64,000 bases of DNA from an uncultured Candidatus Binatia bacterium. Lineage in GTDB: Bacteria; Desulfobacterota; Binatia; Bin18. A program made the translations under genes and the position numbers. Position 1 is the first letter of the stretch; the number at the start of each line of letters is the position of its first letter. Shown here in pieces: positions 4,060-27,824 of the stretch. The notes below the pieces were generated by a model, which was given only the letters and a program-made list of their open reading frames with translations, did no database searches and was not told the origin of the DNA. The stretch is from positions 827,698 to 891,697 of the forward strand of contig CBDEWE010000003.1 of NCBI GenBank assembly GCA_965243855.1, read 5' to 3'.

Positions 4060-4524
4060 CTAGGCTGCTACACGTTTGAGAGGGGTAGCAGGCTGCTCAA
4101 CCTTTGGAGATATCGCTCTGAGACCTGTTTCCCCCCGGAGAGCCGTGACTTCTTCCCTGAGAGCACGAATCTCGGTCTGGAGTGCCCGAGTCTCATTCGC
4201 TGACGGCAGTCCCGCCGCTTGGGTCAACCCAGTCAGAACGGTCTTGGTCAGGGCATTACTGACCTGCTGCCAGCGCAAAAATCCGTCCAGTGCCCGTGCA
4301 GTTGCCTCCGTAAACTGTGGGGTGCGATACAAGTTATCGATGCCCTGAGAGGCCAGTCGGACCATGGCATCATAGCCACCCCAGGCGCTGGTCGTTGTTT
4401 CTTGGTCATCTCCCAAGCCCAAACCCTGCCGTATACCAGCTACGGGCAGGTCGAAGAGCAGGGTCTTATATACTTTCATGGCATCCGTCATCATATTCGC
4501 GACATTAGTCTCTGCCATTGCCAT
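4060..4524 (-). CDS. PhaE-like / PHA-granule-associated protein
   Basis: Helical protein with RTPQF and C-terminal GLPSANETRALQTEIRALREEV coiled coil, typical of PhaE-type C-termini; own RBS and terminator. Confidence 0.5.
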   Translation of the reverse strand: MAMAETNVANMMTDAMKVYKTLLFDLPVAGIRQGLGLGDDQETTTSAWGGYDAMVRLASQGIDNLYRTPQFTEATARALDGFLRWQQVSNALTKTVLTGLTQAAGLPSANETRALQTEIRALREEVTALRGETGLRAISPKVEQPATPLKRVAA

Positions 4525-4931
4525 TCTCCTTCATGTGTTTCGTGTGAACGTTTTCTACTCTACGACGATTGCAGGACCCAACCAAGCAAGCCATCGTCAC
4601 CTATGTGACCTTCGTTTCTGTTTTTTTGAGACTAACTCTTCTTTTTGTCTCCTCGGTGACATCGCCGTGACCTTGCATGAAAAAAGAAGTCAAAGGAATG
4701 AAGCGGCAAATCAGGTGCCATCCTGCTGCATGAGAGATATCCCTGAAAGACAAGGTAAATTTTCTCTCTCAAGGAGCGCGGAGGCAGGAGACTGCCAAAT
4801 TCCCGGGCACCAAGTGTTGACCAGGCAACACAAACCTGCACGGAGCAAGCCAGTTTGCCGTTCGGGGAGCGAGCCTTTATAGTACTCTTCTCCGGCACGT
4901 CTCACGGCCCAAGAAAAAAGGAGAGGGAGAA

Positions 4932-5405
4932 ATGACTCACGAGGAAATGGTTCAAGAACTCTGGGACCGAGAACACATTAAAGAACTGACCTACCAGTAC
5001 GGTTTGGCAATTGAGGCCCAGGATGAGGAAAAAATGGCCAATTTGTTCACCCCGGACGGCTCGGTGGATTTCAGTGCCATGGGCCGAGGCGTGATACAAG
5101 GGACAGACGCTATTAAAGAATTTTACCGCTCAACCTGGCCCCTCAAGGTCAAGCCGTTTTTCACGAATCATGTCATGCAGATTCATGGAGACACTGCGAC
5201 CGGCATCTGTTCGGTTGAGAACCGGGCCACCCGCGGCAGCGAGAGCCTCATTGGCGCGGGCCGCCTGCATGACGAGTACGTCAAGGTGGACGGGGTGTGG
5301 AAATTCAAATCCCGCCGGGTGGATATGTTCTACTTCACTCCTATATCCGAAGGTTGGGCCAAGGTGGATGGTCTCGGAAAATTGGAGGTCGGGCAAGAGT
5401 CCTGA
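4932..5405 (+). CDS. NTF2/SnoaL-like (SnoaL_4) protein
   Basis: DREHIKELTYQYGLAIE..LFTPDG..GRLHDEYVKVDGVWKFKSR pattern. Confidence 0.85.
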   Translation: MTHEEMVQELWDREHIKELTYQYGLAIEAQDEEKMANLFTPDGSVDFSAMGRGVIQGTDAIKEFYRSTWPLKVKPFFTNHVMQIHGDTATGICSVENRATRGSESLIGAGRLHDEYVKVDGVWKFKSRRVDMFYFTPISEGWAKVDGLGKLEVGQES

Positions 5406-17328: not shown

Positions 17329-18417
17329 ATGCAAATCGGGACAATTGCGCTATTTCAACGCTATGGCTATGACGACAGTGTGACGGACAGCCAAGTCTAC
17401 CGGGAAGAGTTGGCTCTGGCCTCGCAGTTAGAGGAACTCGGCTATGACGCGCACTGGTCCGTGGAGCATCACTTTGAGGACTACTCCTTTTGTCCCGATA
17501 ACGCCATTTATCTGGGCCATCTAGCGGCCATTACCACAAGGCTCAAGCTGGCCACCGGCGCGGTGATCGTGCCGTGGAACACGCCACTGCGTTCAGCCGA
17601 GAAGGTTGCACTGTTGGACGAGCTGTCGAACGGTCGGGTGATCTTTGGTATGGGTCGCGGCTTGTCACGCCGGGAGTATGACCAGTTCGGCATTGATATG
17701 GACACCTCGCGGGAGCGTTTTGACGAAGCTGTGCCCATGATTCTCAACGCCCTGGAGACCGGCATTATTGAGGGCAACGGGAAATATTATCAGCAACCAC
17801 GGGCGCCGATTCGTCCCAAGCCCACGCGGACATTCAAGGGACGCACGACCCAGGTGGCGATGTCGCCCGATTCGGCCCTCGAAGCGGCCAAGCACTGCGC
17901 CCAGATGATGGTCTTCACCCAAAAGTCGATTGAGGAGCACAATGCGGATTTTGAACCCTATCGAACTCTGTTTCGCGAACTCCACGGCGTTGATGCTCCT
18001 CCACCCATGATGGCCGGCATGTCTGTCTGCCACGAAGACGCTGGCCGGGCCGAGGAGCTGGCCCACAAATATATCGCGGGTTATCTGCTGTCGGCCATGC
18101 ACCATTACGAACTCATGGGCGATCACTTCAAGAATGCCAAGGGCTACGAAGCTTATGGCGATGCCGTAGACACGCTTCGTGAGTTGGGCCTTGAAGGTAT
18201 GGCCGAGATGTATGTCAACGCGCAGGCATGGGGCACTCCGCAGCAGATTCTGGACAAGCTGTCCCACTGGCGAGAGGTGGTCGGACGGTTTGATCTGATC
18301 TTCGGCTTTCGCGGGGCCGGGATGCCGTTCGAAGATGCCGAGCGCTCCCAGCGTTTAATCGCGCAAAAAGTCATTCCCGAACTCCGGCAGTGGGACGTTG
18401 AAGCAAAAGCGGCCTAG
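17329..18417 (+). CDS. LLM class flavin-dependent oxidoreductase
   Basis: GYDAHWSVEHHF, LLDELSNGR, GMGRG, IRPKP. Confidence 0.9.
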   Translation: MQIGTIALFQRYGYDDSVTDSQVYREELALASQLEELGYDAHWSVEHHFEDYSFCPDNAIYLGHLAAITTRLKLATGAVIVPWNTPLRSAEKVALLDELSNGRVIFGMGRGLSRREYDQFGIDMDTSRERFDEAVPMILNALETGIIEGNGKYYQQPRAPIRPKPTRTFKGRTTQVAMSPDSALEAAKHCAQMMVFTQKSIEEHNADFEPYRTLFRELHGVDAPPPMMAGMSVCHEDAGRAEELAHKYIAGYLLSAMHHYELMGDHFKNAKGYEAYGDAVDTLRELGLEGMAEMYVNAQAWGTPQQILDKLSHWREVVGRFDLIFGFRGAGMPFEDAERSQRLIAQKVIPELRQWDVEAKAA

Positions 18418-18454
18418 GCCATTTGTTTCGTCCGCGTTCCTCCCCACCGCTTCC

Positions 18455-18497
18455 GCCTGGATTCCTGTGAGAGCGGGAATCCGGGCTTCATTTTTTA
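18455..18497 (+). terminator. Intrinsic terminator after the LLM gene
   Basis: gcctggattcctg-loop-cgggaatccgggc followed by ttcatttttt. Confidence 0.6.
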
Positions 18498-18675
18498 TCG
18501 TCCAAATTTTGTCATCCCAGCCCCCACTTTTTGCCCAATTTTGTACTGTTAGGGGCTCAAAAGTCCTTTGAATTCAAAAGGTTAATCGAAACCCCCGCTT
18601 TTTCCCCTATTTGTGCACAAAGTCGGGGTCGAAAATTCCCTTCTCGATTATGGCGGACGGAGGATCGAAAAAGGA

Positions 18676-18704
18676 TTGACATGAAGGACAATGGCTTTTA
18701 TAGT
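18676..18704 (+). promoter_or_regulatory. Sigma70 promoter of the Xre-TM gene
   Basis: TTGACA-N17-TATAGT. Confidence 0.75.
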
Positions 18705-18726
18705 TCCATTTCAACTTACAATGCAA
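18704..18726. promoter_or_regulatory. Palindromic operator, copy 1
   Basis: ttccatttcaacttacaatgcaa; 19/23 identical to 19208-19230; abuts the -10 box. Confidence 0.65.
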
Positions 18727-18750
18727 CATTAAAAAGTCAGGACAGAAGAG

Positions 18751-19146
18751 ATGAAGAAGCCAGTTTCTGAGAAATTAAAAAGAATACAAAAGGCCCTCAA
18801 ACCGCTGGAAATACCGGGCAAGTCGGCGGATGCGCCCGTCAAGCCGGCCCATCTCGCTAAGCTGATGGACGTTGCCCCATCTTCCCTGTCTCGCTGGATG
18901 AAGGACGAGGTCGTACCGAGAGGCCAACAAAAGGAGCGCCTTGATATCTTGTATCGGACAGTCGTTGAGGCCGAGAAAAATGAAGAGGCCAAGAAGATTC
19001 TGAAAAAACTCGTCAGTCCTATACCCACTATCAGTCTGGTGGCTGGTGCCGCTCTCAGTCCCATAGGTTTTGGTTTGTTTGGTGCGATCGCAGCCGCTGG
19101 GTTGGGTTGGCTCCTGTCCGATAAAGAAGATGAAGACGCTAATTAA
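18751..19146 (+). CDS. Xre/Cro-type HTH protein with a C-terminal hydrophobic membrane anchor
   Basis: PAHLAKLMDVAPSSLSRWMKDEVVP HTH; ISLVAGAALSPIGFGLFGAIAAAGLGWLL Gly-rich hydrophobic tail. Confidence 0.75.
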   Translation: MKKPVSEKLKRIQKALKPLEIPGKSADAPVKPAHLAKLMDVAPSSLSRWMKDEVVPRGQQKERLDILYRTVVEAEKNEEAKKILKKLVSPIPTISLVAGAALSPIGFGLFGAIAAAGLGWLLSDKEDEDAN

Positions 19147-19198
19147 GGAGGAATCTGGAAAGAAAGGATGAATTTCAAGGACTTTTGTCATGAAGGGG

Positions 19199-19231
19199 TT
19201 GACTGAATTCCATTGGCACTTACAATGGAAT
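19199..19231 (+). promoter_or_regulatory. Sigma70 promoter overlapped by palindromic operator copy 2
   Basis: TTGACT-N16-TACAAT; attccattg-N7-caatggaat at 19207-19231. Confidence 0.65.
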
Positions 19232-19264
19232 AAATTATGCAACTCAGAAGAGGGGGAAGTTCAA

Positions 19265-19735
19265 ATGACTGAAACGATTATGGCACCTACGGCCCAGCGT
19301 CTATGGGAAAAGTTCACGAGAGGTGCATCCGAAGAGGACTCCCAGCGTATCGAGGAGAAGCTCCCCTTCATGAGAAAAGATCTCATCAAGAAAATCTGGG
19401 GCGAAGTGACACTCTTGGGGAAACTCATTAAGGACCCAAAAGCAGCATGGGGGGCGAAGGCAGCGGCTATTGGTGCTCTCATCTATCTTATCTCCCCGGC
19501 AGACGCAGTACCCGACGTCATACCGGGTGCTGGTCTGCTCGACGATGTGGCCATCATTCTTTTCGTATGTAAAAAGCTCGCTGACGCGCTCAAGGAATAC
19601 ACCGTCGAAGTCGTAAGGGAGGCGGCGGAAATCAAAGCTGAAATAGAAGTCAAAAAGCACTACAAAGTAGTATGGGCATCCGTACTCGGCGCAATAGCTA
19701 TTGCCGGAATCGTTCTTATTCTCAAACTTATATGA
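19265..19735 (+). CDS. YkvA/DUF1232 family membrane protein with an extra C-terminal TM segment
   Basis: AKAAAIGALIYLISPADAVPDVIPGAGLLDD signature; GAGGGGG RBS before ATG 19265. Confidence 0.85.
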   Translation: MTETIMAPTAQRLWEKFTRGASEEDSQRIEEKLPFMRKDLIKKIWGEVTLLGKLIKDPKAAWGAKAAAIGALIYLISPADAVPDVIPGAGLLDDVAIILFVCKKLADALKEYTVEVVREAAEIKAEIEVKKHYKVVWASVLGAIAIAGIVLILKLI

Positions 19736-20001
19736 GTTTTGCCGAGACCGACTTGTTGTTGCCAGCGTATCAGCTAATTCTGCTGTGTGCTGCAATCCCG
19801 ACACTCATTGCTGCGGCCTACGGGGTACGGAAGTGGGTTGCCCGATACCAGCAATTACCGGGGATTTGGCAGCAACCCATCAAGCAGGGGCTCCACTCTG
19901 CGGTCAAACGTTTCACTCGGGAAGAATGGCCAAGGCTAATCGCACTCGCTATTCTCTTGCTCATTCTCGCAGGGCTCACCATTACAATACGGATGATTTA
20001 G
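19732..20001 (+). CDS. Small two-TM hypothetical membrane protein (89 aa)
   Basis: ATGA overlap with the DUF1232 gene; two hydrophobic segments. Confidence 0.6.
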   Translation: MSFAETDLLLPAYQLILLCAAIPTLIAAAYGVRKWVARYQQLPGIWQQPIKQGLHSAVKRFTREEWPRLIALAILLLILAGLTITIRMI

Positions 20002-20032
20002 GGCCGTTCCAGGATTATAAGGATACAACGCG

Positions 20033-21034
20033 ATGAGTCAGAGAAATCTTGGAGAGGATGGCAATCAGATTCTCACTCGTTTCCGAGCTGTTGCGAAAAG
20101 CTATACAGCTCTGTTTCAAGCGCAGCGGGATCACATTCATCAACTTTTGGGTAGCACGCAAAATTATTCAAGTGGAATTTTCCGCGAAAGCCTGCTTCGT
20201 AACTTCCTTACTACAGTATTACCTCGGTCCATTTCCGTAGATTCCGGCTTCGTCTACGGTTTTGAGCAAATTGATAACAGTCGGCAGATCGATATTCTCG
20301 TGTGGGATTCTGGTCGGCACGCAGCAGTATATCAATCTCAAGAGTTTGTCATCGTGCCTCCTGAAGCGGTAATAGCCGCAATCTCGGTAAAGACCACTCT
20401 GAACAAGGCTGATCTAGTTGACTCCTTGGAGAACCTGCTGAGCCTTACACCTCTGGAGCTTGAGTATCGAGTTAGGTTAGACCCAAACTCGAATACGCCT
20501 ATGTTTAGATCAATCACAAAGATTGTTGTCTCGTACGAGGGACCATCGAATCTTGATACAGCCCTGGATACTATAGGAGAGTTTTTTCAGGAGCGGTTTG
20601 CCAGCAATCAGAAAGTAGCAGCCGAGATGATTGATGCTTTTCAGAATTGGAATCCACCCCATCCCGCTCAGGAACAGATTCAGAAAGTTGAACGTGTAAT
20701 CCCAAAATTAATAGCAGTGATTGATAGCGACAATGCTAGTATGATTCAGGGCTGGGGACCGCCAGAAGACGTGCTTGGCACTAATACTTACGGACCAGGA
20801 CTGCGACGATTACCTTATATGTATGTCCAGAAGAACAAACTTACGACTCCCCTTGAGAAGGTTGTTTATCACGTGCTGGAATCTGTCTATCTGGCACTTG
20901 GGACACTCGGCTCTTCGATTGTCTCAGCATGGGGTGAATTTAATCCCAGCACGGAGTCTCGCCTTGGTGATGCCTGGGAAATCGATGAGGAACGAGGTAT
21001 TCAACTTCTCGATCCTGACAGGCTTGCGTCATAG
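20033..21034 (+). CDS. DUF6602-like PD-(D/E)xK fold protein
   Basis: GIFRESLLRNFLTTVLP..SGFV..SRQIDILVWD..PPEAVIAAISVKTTL. Confidence 0.75.
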   Translation: MSQRNLGEDGNQILTRFRAVAKSYTALFQAQRDHIHQLLGSTQNYSSGIFRESLLRNFLTTVLPRSISVDSGFVYGFEQIDNSRQIDILVWDSGRHAAVYQSQEFVIVPPEAVIAAISVKTTLNKADLVDSLENLLSLTPLELEYRVRLDPNSNTPMFRSITKIVVSYEGPSNLDTALDTIGEFFQERFASNQKVAAEMIDAFQNWNPPHPAQEQIQKVERVIPKLIAVIDSDNASMIQGWGPPEDVLGTNTYGPGLRRLPYMYVQKNKLTTPLEKVVYHVLESVYLALGTLGSSIVSAWGEFNPSTESRLGDAWEIDEERGIQLLDPDRLAS

Positions 21035-21085
21035 GATGGTGGAGACAGTCATTTATGACGAGATAATACAAAGGACTGGAACGCA

Positions 21086-21613
21086 ATGAACATCATACCG
21101 GGCAGTACTAAAACTGTGACTCAAATACTTCTTGTCGCTGCATTTACACTCGTTCCAATCGTTCCCGTGTCAGTGTTCGCTGATCCATACAGCCGGCCGT
21201 CTTTCAGCCCCTACCGGAGCCCATCGTATACAAGCCCATCGTTACCGAACTACACGTACAAATCGCAGAGTAAGAGCTATAGCGTGGGCGATTACAGCCG
21301 TCACACCTACAAATACAAAGACAGCCTCGGCAATCGCCACAAGAGCAAGACCCAAGTTCTGCCCAGCGGGACGACCGTAACCAAGGGCAAATACCGCAGT
21401 CCGCGCCCGAGTCCGTTATTACCGAACTATACGTACAAATCACAGAGCCAGAGCTACAGCGTGGGGGATTACAGTCGTCACACCTATAAATACAAAGACA
21501 GCCTCGGCAACCGCTATAAGGGGACAATCGAAGTGTTCCCCGGTGGTGCAGTCAGACACAAAGGCAAAGTCAACGGCAGGAAGTTCAAAAAGACGTATCG
21601 GAACCGGCGATAA
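21086..21613 (+). CDS. Secreted basic Tyr/Ser/Lys-rich protein with an internal duplication
   Basis: Signal peptide ending VFA; two near-identical ~59-aa units containing LPNYTYKSQSxSYSVGDYSRHTYKYKDSLGNR. Confidence 0.7.
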   Translation: MNIIPGSTKTVTQILLVAAFTLVPIVPVSVFADPYSRPSFSPYRSPSYTSPSLPNYTYKSQSKSYSVGDYSRHTYKYKDSLGNRHKSKTQVLPSGTTVTKGKYRSPRPSPLLPNYTYKSQSQSYSVGDYSRHTYKYKDSLGNRYKGTIEVFPGGAVRHKGKVNGRKFKKTYRNRR

Positions 21614-21637
21614 GCTACCTTACCTACCGATTAAGCT

Positions 21638-21907
21638 ATGAACCCGCGAGTCAAAACAGTAACCCCAACAAACGACTACAAATTGTTTCTGACCTTCACC
21701 AATGGAGAGCACGGGATTTATGATTGCTCTTCGTTGCTTGACTTTGGTGTTTTCCAAGAACTCAAGGAGAAAGATTGCTTCCAGCAGGTATCAGTTGTGG
21801 ATGGTACGGTGGCATGGCCACATGACCAGGATATCTGCCCGGATACGCTCTATCTAGACGCACGCAGAGAACAGGTCGCTGCTGTATCCGGGCAGGAATG
21901 TCCTTAG
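21638..21907 (+). CDS. DUF2442 domain protein (putative antitoxin)
   Basis: DYKLFLTFTNGEHGIYD..GVFQELKE..GTVAWPHDQDICPDTLY. Confidence 0.85.
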   Translation: MNPRVKTVTPTNDYKLFLTFTNGEHGIYDCSSLLDFGVFQELKEKDCFQQVSVVDGTVAWPHDQDICPDTLYLDARREQVAAVSGQECP

Positions 21908-21952
21908 AATCCCTATTCTCCCTGCCTATGGGCTGTCTGCAAGGCCGACCTT

Positions 21953-22897
21953 CTAGTATTGGTCTAAACGGCTAATCGCTCTTCGCCAGAAATATTCGGC
22001 TGCTTTCTCAGGGGACATCTCTTCCTCCCATTCTTCTTCCTCCTCTTCTTCTGAGATGAAATACGACATTCCAGAAGCCTTGAGGGCAAGAGCATTGCGC
22101 GTCTCAACAACTCCAAGCCAATCATTCATGGAATTATCCTCGTGATAGTTGAGACTTTGGCCTTCCCAATAGGCGATCTGGTTAGACGATGTGAAGCCGC
22201 CCAACCAGATTTTACAGCGATTGGCTATGTTGCCCTGGATATAGAACGAGCAAACGAATTTGTAACGTTGAATCTCTTCGCAATCCGCTTCGATTCCTGA
22301 ATCGGACTGATTGAGTTGCTCTGTACCTGCTTTGAAATAATCTCTGATGATATCAAAAGCCCCTCTCAAATAGCTATCTTTCTCGCGTTGGGTAAAAGCC
22401 TTTCTGGTATCAGGCATGGGAATATTGAACCGAGGTGACGTTCGAGTACTCTGTTGTGCTTGGATTGCGGAGCCACCTCTCCCTAGCCTAGTTTTCAATT
22501 CCTGAATCACAGGATCGGGTTTTCCACTCCATTCCTGAAAGCGTTTGTCATTGATGAGTGGATATGCAGAAAGAATCTCGCTCCTTTCCTGTTGATTCCC
22601 AACGATGAGCGGTAAGACTCGGACTTCCCCTGAAGAGGATTCGATATTGAGTGCCGCATTCAATTCTCTTTCAGGCCAGTTTTTCGAGACAAAGGACGGA
22701 CTCAGGATAACAATGACGTACCGTGATATCCGGAGTCCTTGGTTTACTTTCTCCGTTATGCTGTCGCCCCATATAATTTCGGCTTCATCGTACCAATATG
22801 TGATACCCGCTTGATTAAAGGCTCTCACGAGGGGAGATACCACCGCCCTCTTATCTTCGCTGGCATGGCACAGAAATACGTCCTTCTGTTTCGTCAC
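21953..22897 (-). CDS. TIR domain protein with an uncharacterised C-terminal domain
   Basis: DVFLCHASEDK, WYDEAEIIWGDSI, SRYVIVILSPSFVSKNWPERELN (catalytic Glu present); GTG start with GGAGGAG RBS. Confidence 0.9.
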   Translation of the reverse strand: MTKQKDVFLCHASEDKRAVVSPLVRAFNQAGITYWYDEAEIIWGDSITEKVNQGLRISRYVIVILSPSFVSKNWPERELNAALNIESSSGEVRVLPLIVGNQQERSEILSAYPLINDKRFQEWSGKPDPVIQELKTRLGRGGSAIQAQQSTRTSPRFNIPMPDTRKAFTQREKDSYLRGAFDIIRDYFKAGTEQLNQSDSGIEADCEEIQRYKFVCSFYIQGNIANRCKIWLGGFTSSNQIAYWEGQSLNYHEDNSMNDWLGVVETRNALALKASGMSYFISEEEEEEEWEEEMSPEKAAEYFWRRAISRLDQY

Positions 22898-23026: not shown

Positions 23027-23055
23027 TTGAAATTGTAACATAAAATGTTACAATT
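23027..23055 (+). promoter_or_regulatory. higBA promoter with palindromic operator
   Basis: TTGAAA -35, extended -10 TGtTACAAT; perfect 11-bp arms aattgtaacat-aaa-atgttacaatt. Confidence 0.7.
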
Positions 23056-23059
23056 CGGC

Positions 23060-23335
23060 GTGATCAAAAGCTTCCAGCACAAAGGACTTGCCGAACTATT
23101 TGAACGAGGGCGTAGTCGGAGGGTGTCACCGAATTTACACGCTCGCTGCTTGCGTCGCCTAGAGACTCTAGATCAGGCTGAAACACAGAGAGACTTAAAC
23201 ATTCCGGGATTTAACTTCCATGAACTTCACGGGCTCCCCAAACGTTACAGCATCCATGTGAATGGTCCATGGTGCATAACCTTCGAATGGGAAGAAGGGG
23301 AAGCGGTGAGGGTTAATCTCGAACAATACCACTGA
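23060..23335 (+). CDS. higB: HigB family toxin (RelE/ParE superfamily)
   Basis: IKSFQHKGLAELFE..PGFNFHELHG..YSIHVNGPWCITFEW..VNLEQYH. Confidence 0.9.
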   Translation: MIKSFQHKGLAELFERGRSRRVSPNLHARCLRRLETLDQAETQRDLNIPGFNFHELHGLPKRYSIHVNGPWCITFEWEEGEAVRVNLEQYH

Positions 23336-23344
23336 GGCAGCAGC

Positions 23345-23698
23345 ATGGCAGAGTATACCATCAAGCGTCCGCTAAAACGTCCTCCTGTCCATCCTGGTGA
23401 AGTAGTGCGGGAGGATGTTTTACCAGCCTTGGGCCTTTCCATTAGCGAAGCAGCCCGCCGTCTCAGAGTTTCGCGTCAGCAACTCCACCGAGTACTCGCT
23501 TGTACCCATCCGGTCTCGACTGAGATGGCACTCCGGCTTGGTAAACTTGCCGGCAACGGCCCTGGGCTCTGGCTTCGGATGCAGCAGAACCATGATGTCT
23601 GGCACGCGGAGCAGCGGCTAAAGGACGAATTGAAAAAAATTAAGCCAGGACTTGTGGAGAGAGCAGGGATAGATGTTAACGAATTCCCGTCATCGTGA
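23345..23698 (+). CDS. higA: HigA family antitoxin
   Basis: PPVHPGEVVRED..EMALRLGK..WLRMQQNHD. Confidence 0.9.
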   Translation: MAEYTIKRPLKRPPVHPGEVVREDVLPALGLSISEAARRLRVSRQQLHRVLACTHPVSTEMALRLGKLAGNGPGLWLRMQQNHDVWHAEQRLKDELKKIKPGLVERAGIDVNEFPSS

Positions 23699-23712: not shown

Positions 23713-25734
23713 TCACCCCATCGTCCGCGGCGTGTACTTATACAAATCCTTCCAATAGTGATCCAACACCGCATCGTCAGCGCAGTCGAGACACTCTAGT
23801 TCTGGGTCGGATACGTCCAGCAGTCCTTTTTTGATTAACGTTTCCGCATACGGCCCGCGGTCGATCAGTTTGACCGGGCCGCGCTCTTCCGCCAGCCGTT
23901 TACGGAGCTGGGCCGTAGCCGATTGATCGACTTCGTGCGTGATCGGGTCCAGGACGACTCCATAATCCCGCTCGGCTCGCTCGGGCGAGACGAGCTTGCG
24001 GACTACATCCATACGAACGGCATCGATGTCGCGCTCCAGAGGGTCGCCCCAGCCTCCACCGCCTGGAGTGGTAAGGCGAATAATATCCCCGGCTTTGACC
24101 GGAATGGCGTCCCGGCTGAAGTAGACCGCCTCTTCCTCCGGGGTGCCGGGGTTCTTGATGGACGAACTTGGCGTACCCCACTTGCCGCCCTTGATGCCTG
24201 TGCAGGCAAAGGCGGTCCGCTCTGTGACTGTCAGATAATGCCCGTCAACCAGCGTCCGTATCTCTTTCTCGTACCCTAGCCCGCCGCGATATTTCCCGGC
24301 TCCGCCCGAATCGGTCGCCAGACCAACGCGCAGGACCTCAACCGGGAAGCGCTGTTCAATGAATTCCGCCGGCAGGTTTTTGGAGTAGGGAACCAGGTCC
24401 ACGGCGTCGGTGCCGTCCGCATATGGCCGTGCGCCCGAACCCGCCCCGAAAATTTCACGCATCAGGAACAATTTGCCCTCAAAGTCCTGCCCATACAGGC
24501 CGTAGATCTGAATGTTCTGCATGTCGGCCACGACCTCTCCGTTAAAGGCTTTGGCCATGGCGACGGTATAGGCGCTGATCATACGCAGCATACAGGTCAT
24601 GCGACTCACTACCGGGGCCGGAAACTTCGGACTCAGAATGGTCCCCTGTGGAATACGACAGCGAAAGACCTGAGTGACGCCTTCGTTAATGATGATGCCG
24701 GGAATCTGCGCCTTGAAGAACGCACCGAGCCATTTTGAGTAATGACGGCCATCAACCGGCCAGTTGATCGGCCCCCTGGCCTGGGGACTGGTACCCGCGA
24801 AATCCAGGATCATCTTGTCCGTATACTTGCGCATGGTGATCTGGAGCTTGACCGGCTTTTCCAAGGTCAGACCATCGTTCTCAATAAAATCTTCCCCGAT
24901 GAACTCCCCATCAGGGAACAGGGGCAGGCCCTTCTCGCGCACCACCTCAGCGCAGCGATCAAGGATTTCATAAAACGCGGCCTCTACCTCATTCCCGCCA
25001 AAACGATCGCATAATTCTGTTACCCGACGGCGGATGACCTCATTCGCGCCAACAAAGGCGTCAATATCGCCTCGCAGGTCCTCGGGGAAACGACTGTTCC
25101 GCAGCAGAACATCGTACAGTCCTTCGTTGAGCTGGCCCTTTTCGTACAGCTTGACCGGCGGACAGATGGTGCCTTCCTCAAAAATACTGGTCGAGGTACT
25201 CGGCCAGGAGCCTGCCATACGGCCGCCCACATCGTTGACATGGCCGAATATCTGCGCAAATCCAATCAGCCGTTCGTCCCAGAAAATGGGAGTGACCACA
25301 CAATAGTCCGGCAGATGGCCGATCGTTCCGGCCGACTGATAAACGTCGTTGTAGATAAACACATCGCCTTCATAGATACGCTCAGCCGGAAACTTCATCC
25401 GAATCGGGTCGGCGGTGGCGGCCCAGGACACGCGCGAGACCGATAGACAGTCGAGCGTGTTGAGTGAGGCCCGGTAGTCGTGCTGTTCGCGGATAATGGT
25501 CGAACGGGCGGTTCGCTCCACTGCGGCTTCGGCTTCCATAATGGCAGCCTCGATCCCGCCGTCCACAATATCGACCAGGATCGGGTCCAGGTCTTTTCTC
25601 AGTGCGTCGATACGGCTGACAACGTCCGGGTCTTGGGCGACCTGGCCGTACCGAAACGGGGCGTAGTCCTGAAAGGCGACGGCCTCATCGGCTTTTTCAT
25701 AATAGGTCTGCGAAAATTGTTTGTGATCGGCCAT
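23713..25734 (-). CDS. Hydantoinase B/oxoprolinase family protein
   Basis: EGDVFIYND..GHLPD, GHVNDVGG, DSGGAGKYRGGLG, TPGGGGWGDPLER. Confidence 0.9.
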   Translation of the reverse strand: MADHKQFSQTYYEKADEAVAFQDYAPFRYGQVAQDPDVVSRIDALRKDLDPILVDIVDGGIEAAIMEAEAAVERTARSTIIREQHDYRASLNTLDCLSVSRVSWAATADPIRMKFPAERIYEGDVFIYNDVYQSAGTIGHLPDYCVVTPIFWDERLIGFAQIFGHVNDVGGRMAGSWPSTSTSIFEEGTICPPVKLYEKGQLNEGLYDVLLRNSRFPEDLRGDIDAFVGANEVIRRRVTELCDRFGGNEVEAAFYEILDRCAEVVREKGLPLFPDGEFIGEDFIENDGLTLEKPVKLQITMRKYTDKMILDFAGTSPQARGPINWPVDGRHYSKWLGAFFKAQIPGIIINEGVTQVFRCRIPQGTILSPKFPAPVVSRMTCMLRMISAYTVAMAKAFNGEVVADMQNIQIYGLYGQDFEGKLFLMREIFGAGSGARPYADGTDAVDLVPYSKNLPAEFIEQRFPVEVLRVGLATDSGGAGKYRGGLGYEKEIRTLVDGHYLTVTERTAFACTGIKGGKWGTPSSSIKNPGTPEEEAVYFSRDAIPVKAGDIIRLTTPGGGGWGDPLERDIDAVRMDVVRKLVSPERAERDYGVVLDPITHEVDQSATAQLRKRLAEERGPVKLIDRGPYAETLIKKGLLDVSDPELECLDCADDAVLDHYWKDLYKYTPRTMG

Positions 25735-25760
25735 GCTGACACCCCGTAGAATGCGTTTTG

Positions 25761-27824
25761 TTATTGCGTTCGCTCGAGCCGCAGCGTCCCCCACTGGTCC
25801 ACCCGGCCACTCCAGCCCGGTTCCACAACCGTGGTGGCATCGTACTGCTGGATGATGGCCGGGCCGCTCAGCTCGTTACCCGTCTGTAACGCGGCCCGAT
25901 TGTACACCGGAGTATCCAGTGTGCTTTTGGAGAAATAGACCGCGGTCTGGCCCGTCCGGGCATGCTCCGGACTCGTGCCTGCCGGCTGCGCTTGCGGCAC
26001 GTGGGGGCGTTTGAGCAGCCCCAGCCCGGTGACACCCACGTTGACCAGTTCAACCAGTTCCTTCCCTGCATAGGAATAGCCGTAGAGGTCCTTATGGCTG
26101 GCGTGAAACTTGGTGATGGCCTGCTGAATGTGAGTCTGAATCTCTGATATTGCCGAATCAATTGAGAGCGGAATCCGAATCTCGTAGGCTTGGCCGGCAT
26201 ACCGCATGTCCACAAAATGATTGAGCCGGGTATCCTGGGTGAGCAAGCCTTCATCCTCCAGACGGGCGGCCACACGGCGTTCAAGATCCTGAATTTCAGC
26301 CGCGATACGGTCCACGTCCAAACGGTCTTCACGCTGGACATCCGTATGCACCAGGTCCACCCGCACATCAGTCAGCAGCAGGCCATACGCCGAAGTCACA
26401 CCTGGGTTGGGCGGGATAATGACGTGCTGCATATCAAGCCAGTCGGCCAGATAACAGGCGTGGAGCGGTCCTGCTCCGCCGAACGCGACCAGAGCATAGC
26501 TGCGCGGGTCGCGCCCGCGTTTCACGGATACCGTCCGAATACCGGCAGCAATATTTTCAACAGCTATGCGCAGAATGCCTTCTGCCGCGGCGATGGTGTC
26601 GAGTTTGAGGCCCGCGGCAAGGTCGGCTACAACCTCAGTTGCCTGACTGAGGTCCAGCGAGACGCTGCCCCCGGCAATGGTTGGTGTGATACGTCCCAGC
26701 ACCAGATTGGCGTCCGTCACCGTCGGCTGGCTGCCGCCCCGGCCATAGCAGGCCGGCCCGGGATTCGCGCCCGCGCTGTCCGGGCCCACTTTCAAACTCC
26801 GCCCGCCCGCCAGCCAGGCAATTGATCCACCACCCGCCCCAACCGTATGCAGCTCGATCATGGGCGTTTTGAGATCATAGATATCGACCTTTCCCTCCGT
26901 CAGCATGCGCGGCTGGCCGCCTTCGACCAGACAAATATCGGCCGAGGTCCCACCCATATCAAAAGTAATAATGTCCTGGTTACCGCTCAGCGTGCCAAAA
27001 TGGGTGGCGGCAATCACCCCTGCGGCCGGACCGGAAAGGGCTGCGGCAATCGGCAAACGGGCGACCTCCTGGGCCTGGGCCAGCCCGCCGCTCGAGCGCA
27101 TGATGTAAAACGGCGCGCTGATGTCCCGCTCGCGTAAGTGCTGTTCAATCCGGGTGTGATACGCTGACAGAAGGGGCATCAGGGCGGTGTTCAAGCAGGT
27201 CGTATTGGTCCGTTCGTACTCGCGGTATTCGCGCAGGATGTCCGACGAGATGGAAATAAAGCAGTCCGGATACACCTCGCGAATAATACGCCTGACTGCT
27301 TCCTCGTGCTCCGGATTACGGTAGGAGTGCAGTAAGGAAACAGCCACGGCCTGAATGCTACGCGCTTTGAAGTCCTGCGCAATGGCCGCCACTTCGTCCC
27401 GGTCCAACTCCTGAGTGATCGTGCCCCGCACGTCCATTCGGGCGCTGATCTCCCGGATGCGTTCGAGCGGCACCACCCGCGGCGGTTTAATCCACCAGGT
27501 AATATCACCAAATTCTCCGGGAACGGTCTGGCGGGCGCACTCCAGGGCTTCCCGGTAGCCGGCGGTAATGATCAGACCGAGTTCTGAATACTTGCGTTCC
27601 AGAATGGCGTTGGTGGCAACGGTCGTGCCGTGAAAGACCACGTTCACCTCATGAGCATCGATCTTCCCGTGCTGGGTGATATGCTCAAGGCCGTTGACAA
27701 AGCCCTGGGCCGGGTCGTCCGGCGTGCTGCGCACCTTTGCCAAATGCAGCGTCCCGCTGCTCTCCTCGAGCGCAACAACATCCGTAAACGTTCCCCCAAT
27801 GTCTACCGCTAACCGCCAGGTCAT
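25761..27824 (-). CDS. Hydantoinase A/oxoprolinase family protein
   Basis: DIGGTFTD, HGTTVATNA, REYERTNTT, SGPAAG, DMGGTSAD, GAGGGS, AFGGAGPLH. Confidence 0.9.
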   Translation of the reverse strand: MTWRLAVDIGGTFTDVVALEESSGTLHLAKVRSTPDDPAQGFVNGLEHITQHGKIDAHEVNVVFHGTTVATNAILERKYSELGLIITAGYREALECARQTVPGEFGDITWWIKPPRVVPLERIREISARMDVRGTITQELDRDEVAAIAQDFKARSIQAVAVSLLHSYRNPEHEEAVRRIIREVYPDCFISISSDILREYREYERTNTTCLNTALMPLLSAYHTRIEQHLRERDISAPFYIMRSSGGLAQAQEVARLPIAAALSGPAAGVIAATHFGTLSGNQDIITFDMGGTSADICLVEGGQPRMLTEGKVDIYDLKTPMIELHTVGAGGGSIAWLAGGRSLKVGPDSAGANPGPACYGRGGSQPTVTDANLVLGRITPTIAGGSVSLDLSQATEVVADLAAGLKLDTIAAAEGILRIAVENIAAGIRTVSVKRGRDPRSYALVAFGGAGPLHACYLADWLDMQHVIIPPNPGVTSAYGLLLTDVRVDLVHTDVQREDRLDVDRIAAEIQDLERRVAARLEDEGLLTQDTRLNHFVDMRYAGQAYEIRIPLSIDSAISEIQTHIQQAITKFHASHKDLYGYSYAGKELVELVNVGVTGLGLLKRPHVPQAQPAGTSPEHARTGQTAVYFSKSTLDTPVYNRAALQTGNELSGPAIIQQYDATTVVEPGWSGRVDQWGTLRLERTQ

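Follow-up and report, generated by a model that had tools for sequence, protein, structure and literature searches.

At the opening of a low-GC islet in the genome of an uncultured Candidatus Binatia bacterium stand four genes (genes 1 to 4, Table 1), and the two promoters that precede gene 1 and gene 2 carry closely similar operator-like sites. The DNA analysed is a stretch of 64,000 nucleotides (nt) of contig CBDEWE010000003.1, called the window below, from a genome of 4,964,356 bases (4.96 Mb). Our preferred reading, to which we give an even chance, is that gene 1 encodes an orphaned antitoxin-type autorepressor that would gate both itself and a pair of membrane proteins, a DUF1232 protein and a two-transmembrane (2TM) protein (genes 2 and 3), through a duplicated promoter-operator, with the nuclease gene 4 as separate cargo. 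Gene 1 would be a small dimeric lambda-repressor-type helix-turn-helix (HTH) protein of a rare family, whose genes usually stand in the antitoxin position, ahead of a gene for an 89-amino-acid (aa) DUF4258-like (BECR-fold) toxin-type protein. It would bind a palindrome that overlaps the -10 hexamer and the start site and so shut off the promoter of its own gene; the half-site is about TTCCATTG, and the inner ATTG/CAAT centres are 11 bp apart. In this lineage a second copy of the promoter-operator would have replaced the toxin-type gene and would now drive the DUF1232 protein and the translationally coupled 2TM protein, and gene 1 would repress both itself and this membrane pair. Loss of the repressor would switch both on, either by proteolysis, as for antitoxins, or by a membrane event acting through its hydrophobic tail; that stress or phage triggers the release is speculation. 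The DUF6602 nuclease would be an independent cargo of the NucC/Damona kind, in a variable low-GC islet and read through from promoter 2.

Both promoters and both sites lie where a first-pass annotation of the bare sequence had placed them, promoter 1 being followed by site 1 and promoter 2 overlapped by site 2, as could be read directly. The two promoters are the best of eight promoter-like sites in the region 18300-22000 (shuffled sequences gave a mean of 3.7, standard deviation 2.2). Site 1 runs from the last base of the -10 hexamer of promoter 1 across the likely start site and site 2 covers the spacer and the -10 hexamer of promoter 2, positions that would fit occlusion of RNA polymerase. 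The annotation was also right that the sites are identical at 19 of 23 positions (83%) and that site 2 forms, with its flanks (19207-19231), a perfect palindrome ATTCCATTG-N7-CAATGGAAT. The 20-nt motif TTCCATTNNNNCTTACAATG has two matches in the window at up to 2 mismatches, both of them exact (0.02 expected; none of 100 shuffles reached two), and across the whole genome the same two exact sites are joined by a single two-mismatch site 1.18 Mb away, with no match for a reversed-pattern control. About 90 nt upstream of gene 1 align almost over their full length with the spacer between gene 1 and the DUF1232 gene, including the -35 hexamer, the motif and a CAGAAGAG leader. Because the two regions align in this way (local alignment score 42 against a shuffle maximum of 30, z 7.9, 0 of 300 shuffles), promoter 2 is, judged by the alignment, a paralogous duplicate of promoter 1. 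A blastn-short comparison of the promoter 1 regions against all loci gave only one 13-nt match. A near-palindrome, CCTTTGAATTCAAAAGG, lies at 18558-18581, about 100 nt upstream of promoter 1, and an inverted copy of it (17 of 19 positions) at 19169-19187, directly upstream of promoter 2; similar palindromes are found upstream of gene 1 in the sister loci L022 and L024. It may belong to the duplicated segment or be a second element common to both promoters.

The comparison covered 27 other genomes of the genus, of which 11 have gene 1 and a twelfth a more distant copy, making 13 loci together with the window. The alleles fall into a class A with 71-81% identity to the window and classes B and C with 46-48%. 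In the class-A sister loci the promoter 1 region is conserved upstream of gene 1. The class-A loci L019 and L020 have site 1 with one change; L021, L022 and L023 have variants of it. The layout of the window, i.e. gene 1, promoter 2, the DUF1232 gene and the 2TM gene without the toxin-type gene, is also present in L019, which keeps both sites. Here site 2 reads TTTATTCCATT-N9-AATGGAATAAA, with 8- and 9-nt arms identical to those of the window and differences at 5 of 8 spacer positions, and the genes adjoining it have a proportion of synonymous differences (pS) of 0.43-0.48 with respect to the window. In 4 of 4 metagenome runs (three studies, 80-95+% identity) contigs join gene 1 to promoter 2 and the DUF1232 gene, again with no toxin-type gene between, and those of runs X6 and X8 continue through the 2TM gene. 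Among the best-supported differences, the changes listed for site 2 in the four runs fall only at 19215 (the innermost arm base), 19217 (spacer) and 19231 (the outermost base). The palindrome, whose conservation the first-pass annotation had proposed to check, is thus kept in its arms in L019 and in all four runs as the spacer changes. Furthermore, the sequence at the own promoter goes with the class of gene 1. Class-A loci combine the palindrome TTCCATT..AATGGAA with the recognition helix PSSLSRW, and class-B loci, with the helix QSSIFRW, have CTCCCA-N14-TGGGAG at the same place. The arms kept in L019, the metagenome contigs and this link to the gene 1 class point to a function of the sites beyond common inheritance.

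A motif that is unique and that varies with the allele class of gene 1, not with HigA, makes gene 1 the likely factor for both sites. HigA, encoded at the far end of the islet, was considered as the binding factor and rejected, because in L024, which keeps a HigA of 95.6% identity, a search allowing up to 3 mismatches found no TTCCATT motif.

The protein coded by gene 1 had been described as an Xre HTH with a Gly-rich hydrophobic tail; fold matches are consistent with the first part of this description, and hydropathy bears out the second. Apart from the Pfam match given below, the HTH was matched weakly by P22_Cro (E 0.085) and by the NCBIfam DicA profile (17.2 bits vs 101), and a profile search against the PDB reached the P22 C2 repressor at E 0.15-0.2. 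The AlphaFold2 (AF2) model, built from 26 homologues, has a mean predicted local distance difference test score (pLDDT) of 69, with 75-90 in the blocks covering residues 31-90, and helices at 5-16, 32-38, 43-50, 58-74 and 78-88. Nearly all its Foldseek matches are of Xre/Cro type (P22 C2, HigA, ImmR, SinR, P2 C), among them P22 C2 (1adr) with a probability of 0.99 and a root-mean-square deviation of 2.2 over 69 columns, and 3jxb and 2r1j with TMt 0.67-0.68. The model is consistent with an Xre/Cro fold, an assignment that is statistically not strong. The tail reaches a Kyte-Doolittle (KD) maximum of 1.85 in a 19-residue window. The same build is found in distant relatives (29-42% identity), in which the HTH is followed by G-x-x-G-x-[LVI]-[IL]-A-x-G-[LVM]-x-W and a short, mostly acidic end, with G108, G117 and W120 invariant in the family. 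The hydrophobic segment has a KD of at least 1.6 in 18 of 22 family members, and on a crude Hessa-scale sum it is marginal (-0.7 to +6.6). A single C-terminal membrane anchor is plausible but unproven.

The gene 1 family is rare. It comprises 65 proteins among 152 candidates in a set of 5.8 billion, none of them with a Pfam domain or a name, and 40 representative clusters at E <= 1e-3 among 1.84 billion. A profile search of 401 genomes of the phylum found no full-length member outside the genus, only generic HTH parts (positions ~5-81 of 118), and the alignment had no relatives in the metagenome contig scan or in the viral contig scan. PADLOC gave nothing for genes 1-3 beyond one chance-level match for gene 1.

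In 11 of the 13 loci gene 1 is followed, behind a tight ribosome-binding site, by a gene for an 89-aa basic protein (MYTAHAKVRMQQRAIP...), here called p89. It is intact in eight loci (in one fused in frame to the next gene) and disrupted in three; in the window and in L019 no p89 gene stands behind gene 1, and none was found anywhere in the genome of the window. Neither the usual pairing of gene 1 with p89, missing here, nor the duplication of promoter 1 as promoter 2 was part of the first-pass annotation. p89 carries no Pfam annotation; 38 close homologues were found. DUF4258 is the top Pfam match for 21 of 21 members, always below the cut-off (best E 3.8e-5; first member 16.5 bits vs 25). 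The AF2 model of p89 (pLDDT 90) has BECR RNase toxins among its top fold matches (E 0.47-2.5, TM 0.4-0.5); CdiA-CT, colicin E5/D-type, YafQ, RelE, BrnT and YoeB chains appear together with unrelated ones, all at E of at least 0.25. PMC11980606 lists DUF4258 among the BECR-fold toxin families, with its activity unknown and its genes in antitoxin-then-toxin order. The simplest reading is that gene 1 and p89 would form a toxin-antitoxin-like pair, of which the gene 1 of the window would be the orphan. Judged by its dN/dS (ratio of nonsynonymous to synonymous substitution rates) of 0.14-0.15 against L019 and L020, gene 1 is under purifying selection despite the absence of p89.

The pair that follows promoter 2 was found as first described, a DUF1232 gene with an extra transmembrane segment, an ATGA-coupled 2TM gene and, 31 nt later, the DUF6602 gene. 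Gene 2 passes the gathering score of the DUF1232 family (PF06803, E 3.4e-12, 46.3 bits vs 23, full profile 1-37) and its extra C-terminal hydrophobic segment has a KD maximum of 2.68. It also matches the phage protein family phrog_14750 (E 2.5e-13). Its orthologues in L019 and L028 have 72-74% identity, and proteins of the same build (N-terminal extension, DUF1232, C-terminal transmembrane segment) are found in Lutibacter and Fusibacter at 44-52%. Gene 2 had no relatives in the metagenome contig scan and no tblastn match in the phage collection, and a literature search on the name DUF1232 gave no paper on function. A second DUF1232 gene is present elsewhere in the genome (L069, G000:C3:4091693-4091803, E 5.7e-11). 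Gene 3 had no match in Pfam, PADLOC, NCBIfam or PHROG and is restricted to the genus, with 15 homologues at 72-100% identity; it occurs in 4 of 28 genus genomes, in one as a remnant. With dN/dS values of 0.19-0.28 for gene 2 and 0.25-0.27 for gene 3 across three genomes, and with the ATGA coupling kept across genomes, genes 2 and 3 are real genes.

Gene 4 scores above the gathering threshold of DUF6602 (PF20247, E 7.3e-18, 64.8 bits vs 27) and is matched in PADLOC by PD_DExK (3.8e-22) and NucC (4.6e-12). Against NucC chains E ranges from 1.7e-5 (Serratia NucC, 7zgv) to 0.023, over the nuclease core at residues 42-137, and the alignment includes QID..D and (S/E)-V-K stretches. No tblastn match to gene 4 was found in the phage collection. 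The first-pass annotation had made this nuclease one of the effectors of a single four-gene defence system, in which a membrane-tethered repressor would sense envelope damage or phage entry and on release induce the membrane effectors and the nuclease. Such a system appears improbable to us, even if the four genes run closely spaced in one direction, the terminator scan found no terminator-like site from 18487 to 22000, and the islet also holds a TIR/ThsB-like gene and HigBA. None of the 27 other genomes has an orthologue of gene 4; two have 31-33% identical domain matches elsewhere in the genome. It is missing behind gene 3 in both sister loci that have the pair, where other genes stand instead: in L028 only 16 nt are common with the window before the sequences diverge (homology ends at about 20016), and in L019 about 50 nt are common, among them what is left of the start of gene 4, in degraded form. 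By this remnant some ancestor had gene 4 at this place, since replaced; the link with the nuclease thus predates the genome studied here, a point in favour of the four-gene system. The contigs of X6 and X8 also part from the window at 20016 and continue in an unlike sequence that is the same in both. Most of gene 4 has no cover in the four runs, which by itself is not counted as evidence. DUF6602 proteins are encoded on 31 plasmid records, at less than 60% identity, and on the two plasmids inspected nothing like DUF1232, 2TM or gene 1 lies next to them; gene 1, for its part, heads many other cargos. On this pattern gene 4 is a separate single-gene cargo in a swappable slot and not part of the conserved unit, and since no terminator intervenes it would probably be co-transcribed by read-through from promoter 2. 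Of the co-occurrence looked for, gene 1 with the DUF1232 and 2TM genes recurs in L019 and in the metagenome contigs, and DUF6602 does not recur with them. The claim that the HTH protein represses itself and a downstream unit survives in part: gene 1 is the likely factor for both sites, and the unit would have three genes and not four. For a defence role it is only the neighbourhood that speaks.

A more serious possibility, if still an unlikely one, is that there is no regulatory link at all. Gene 1 would then be a decaying orphan antitoxin, promoter 2 a recombination scar carrying an old operator, and the DUF1232 and 2TM proteins ordinary membrane proteins, constitutively expressed. The duplication of promoter 1, the many broken genes of an islet that is a recombination hotspot, and the same-build DUF1232 proteins of Lutibacter and Fusibacter, which stand alone, all agree with it. 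So does L028, a class-B locus in which the DUF1232 gene is preceded by a class-B promoter copy (z 11.6 vs promoter 1 of L027, 0 of 300 shuffles) with a degraded palindrome. Against it stand a gene 1 that is under purifying selection without p89 (dN/dS 0.14) and has a conserved tail, and a site 2 that is more perfect a palindrome than site 1 and that keeps its arms in L019 and four runs as the spacer drifts. Very improbable, in our view, is a role of site 2 as RNA, i.e. a hairpin in read-through from promoter 1 that would stabilise, process or attenuate the message between gene 1 and the DUF1232 gene. Its RNA (19195-19245) does fold at -16.2 kcal/mol (z -4.4, 0 of 200 shuffles) and no terminator lies between gene 1 and site 2. 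An RNA role cannot explain the shared motif, because site 1 does not fold (-2.7 kcal/mol, z 0.08); moreover, the hairpin is not followed by a T-run, the element lies exactly over a good -35/-10 pair, and the arms never vary beyond the end bases named above, leaving no compensatory change in support of pairing.

Several observations also weigh against an orphaned autorepressor that gates the membrane pair. As a by-product of the duplication, the likeness of sites 1 and 2 is partly inherited. Class-C alleles share the helix PSSLSRW of class A, and yet TTCCATT was not found in their loci with as many as 3 mismatches allowed, which weakens the argument from covariation, and because the promoter copy of L028 has no intact palindrome, control of the DUF1232 pair by gene 1 would not be constant. 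The HTH of gene 1 stays below every curated cut-off (HTH_31 in Pfam, E 0.041, 14.6 bits vs 27) and all its fold matches have E of at least 0.24 (0.24 to 2.7). Four of the 22 family members fall below a KD of 1.6, some with R, E, K or H inside the segment, and residues 91-131 of the gene 1 model have a pLDDT below 50, with the tail mostly without helix. Finally, the exact layout is known only from two whole genomes and the metagenome contigs, all of them kin.

The low-GC islet extends from about 18.5 to 23.7 kb (47-50% GC vs 56-62% in the flanking windows), between the core genes listed in Table 1. A single terminator-like site (18455-18486) was found in the scanned region, behind the upstream core gene. 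With no tRNA gene in the window and no integrase among the proteins scanned, the islet is no clear case of an integrative element. An orthologue of the monooxygenase (96.7-98.1% protein identity) lies 0.3-3.1 kb upstream in 11 of the 13 gene 1 loci; as gene 1 itself has only 46-81% identity, the islet genes are far more diverged than their core flanks. Where a genome of the genus lacks gene 1, the interval between these core genes is filled differently; one such genome has p89 alone and one a gene 3 remnant. Compared in this way, the locus is a recombination hotspot in which the head stays fairly constant and the tails are exchanged.

Table 1 Features of the locus and its surroundings (positions in the window)
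Feature	Position	Strand	Description
Luciferase-like monooxygenase gene	17329-18417		Upstream core gene, islet border
Promoter 1	18676-18704	+	TTGACA (18676-18681), N17, TATAGT (18699-18704); 11/12 consensus matches; precedes gene 1
Site 1	18704-18726	no strand	TTCCATTTCAACTTACAATGCAA; imperfect palindrome TTCCATTT-N7-CAATGCAA
Gene 1	18751-19146	+	131 aa; lambda-repressor-like HTH, conserved Gly-rich hydrophobic segment, acidic tail; putative autorepressor
Promoter 2	19199-19226	+	TTGACT (19199-19204), N16, TACAAT (19221-19226); 10/12 consensus matches; precedes the DUF1232 gene
Site 2	19208-19230	no strand	TTCCATTGGCACTTACAATGGAA; covers spacer and -10 of promoter 2
Gene 2	19265-19735	+	DUF1232 membrane protein, 156 aa; N-terminal extension, C-terminal transmembrane segment
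Gene 3	19732-20001	+	89-aa 2TM protein; ATGA overlap with gene 2, two strong hydrophobic segments
Gene 4	20033-21034	+	333 aa; DUF6602 / NucC-like PD-(D/E)xK nuclease; starts after a 31-nt gap behind gene 3
Secreted repeat protein	21086-21613	+	175 aa
TIR-domain protein	21953-22897	-	314 aa
HigB/HigA pair	23045-23698	+	Far islet end
Hydantoinase B-type gene	23713-25794	-	Other islet border

The other genes of the islet code for a secreted repeat protein, a DUF2442 protein, a TIR protein and a HigB/HigA pair. The secreted protein has two copies of a Tyr/Ser/Lys-rich repeat (PNYTYKSQS..YSVGDYSRHTYKYKDSLGNR) and no family match; kept in 17 of the 19 sister loci compared, it marks the far edge of the swappable slot. 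The TIR protein (Pfam TIR_2 2e-22, PADLOC PDC-S66 3.4e-35, ThsB 4.2e-24) is also found in L024 and L044, at 92-94% identity. The HigB/HigA pair decays across the loci L019-L046, with HigA often left without HigB and split or truncated in several of them, and L045 and L046 have a different HigBA-like pair (27-28% identity). In L019 (genome G015) the slot of gene 4 holds a gene for a 189-aa protein without a family and, after it, one for a canonical DUF4258 protein (E 1.1e-23); the two genes, at 4230-4550 and 4557-5126 on the minus strand, may form a further toxin-type pair.

The cargos that follow gene 1 and p89 differ among the sister loci. The most frequent, a YaaW/PRK10236-like protein with a protein of about 320 aa, is present in 6 of the 13 gene 1 loci, in one only as remnants. 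A 322-aa protein with a DUF726-type hydrolase is found in two loci, an ankyrin-repeat protein in one and an SCP2 protein in one; the DUF1232 and 2TM genes are found in three (the window, L019 and L028), of which L028 also has p89. The first of these cargos makes a recurrent four-gene module in L022, L026, L027, L029 and L030 (remnants in L020), composed of gene 1, p89, the YaaW/PRK10236-like protein of about 220 aa and the protein of about 320 aa, which has no Pfam match. The YaaW-like protein matches NCBIfam NF007593 (E 4e-15, below the cut-off; library label 'acidic protein MsyB'). Fusions are found as well: the database protein P0120 joins a gene 1-like N-terminus to a YaaW-like domain, and a 342-aa open reading frame of L027 joins p89 to such a domain. 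A broader picture, which we put forward tentatively and think rather doubtful, is that tail-anchored Gly-zipper HTH repressors or antitoxins form an undescribed family, founded by gene 1, which heads a cassette of constant head and variable tail. The head would be the promoter-operator, gene 1 and the DUF4258-like gene, and the tails would be wired in by copying of the promoter-operator. With its tail embedded in the membrane, such a protein would be a compact sensor that links derepression to the membrane state and so switches on membrane-active cargo.

In comparison with known systems, gene 4 resembles NucC (PDB 7zgv, 6uxf, 6p7o) in its matches over the nuclease core, and differs from it in a C-terminal half (of 333 aa) that has no assignment and in having S-V-K where the Serratia and Vibrio enzymes have the E of the E-V-K motif. 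It also differs from the NucC of cyclic-oligonucleotide-based antiphage signalling systems (CBASS) and type III CRISPR in that no adjacent cyclase was found among the seven neighbouring proteins scanned with PADLOC, a scan in which Cas10 was not searched for; the single SMODS/CD-NTase-type gene of the genome (L070, G000:C3:3528073-3528492, E 1.7e-11) is 2.68 Mb away from gene 4. As far as its description goes, Damona is a single-gene anti-phage cassette with DUF6602 in the chromosomal integron of Vibrio cholerae (bioRxiv 10.1101/2024.07.02.601686), and gene 4 is alike in its DUF6602 domain and in behaving as a swappable unit that stands alone. That a probable passenger, the nuclease, gave the locus the look of a new system is a caution for the discovery of defence systems. 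Gene 2 is in turn a regular member of the DUF1232/YkvA family by its Pfam score and by the build shared with Lutibacter and Fusibacter, whose proteins differ in that no 2TM protein and nothing like gene 1 is encoded beside them. Binding of both sites by gene 1 would give a first regulatory handle on a protein of this widespread family.

Type II toxin-antitoxin systems, with an HTH antitoxin of Xre/HigA type and a BECR toxin of the RelE/ParE superfamily to which DUF4258 belongs by the listing in PMC11980606, are similar in having a small HTH gene upstream and a palindrome at its own promoter. The sister loci add a small basic protein downstream, with weak DUF4258 matches and a BECR-like model, in the antitoxin-then-toxin order given there, and the toxin gene decays often and the pair lies in a variable islet. 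The window differs in that the toxin-type gene is gone and that a second operator copy, with putative control, stands before other genes. Gene 1 differs in the conserved Gly-rich hydrophobic segment of an antitoxin-position protein; to our knowledge no such segment is known in HigA-type antitoxins. Binding of gene 1 to both sites would make the locus a clean natural case of regulatory rewiring, in which an autorepressor outlives its toxin through a promoter-operator copy that controls new genes. BcrR combines an Xre-type HTH with four transmembrane helices. This Enterococcus faecalis protein appears in a listing of transmembrane transcription regulators (PMC10269533). Regulators of this type and gene 1 are alike in a cytoplasmic N-terminal DNA-binding domain joined to a hydrophobic segment, and in adjoining genes, for gene 1 the putative targets, that encode membrane proteins. 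Gene 1 would differ in having a single, marginal C-terminal segment (a putative anchor), with an acidic tail of 6-12 residues outside and no sensor domain, and it would be, if it binds both sites, a very small and possibly tail-anchored addition to the membrane-bound transcription factors.

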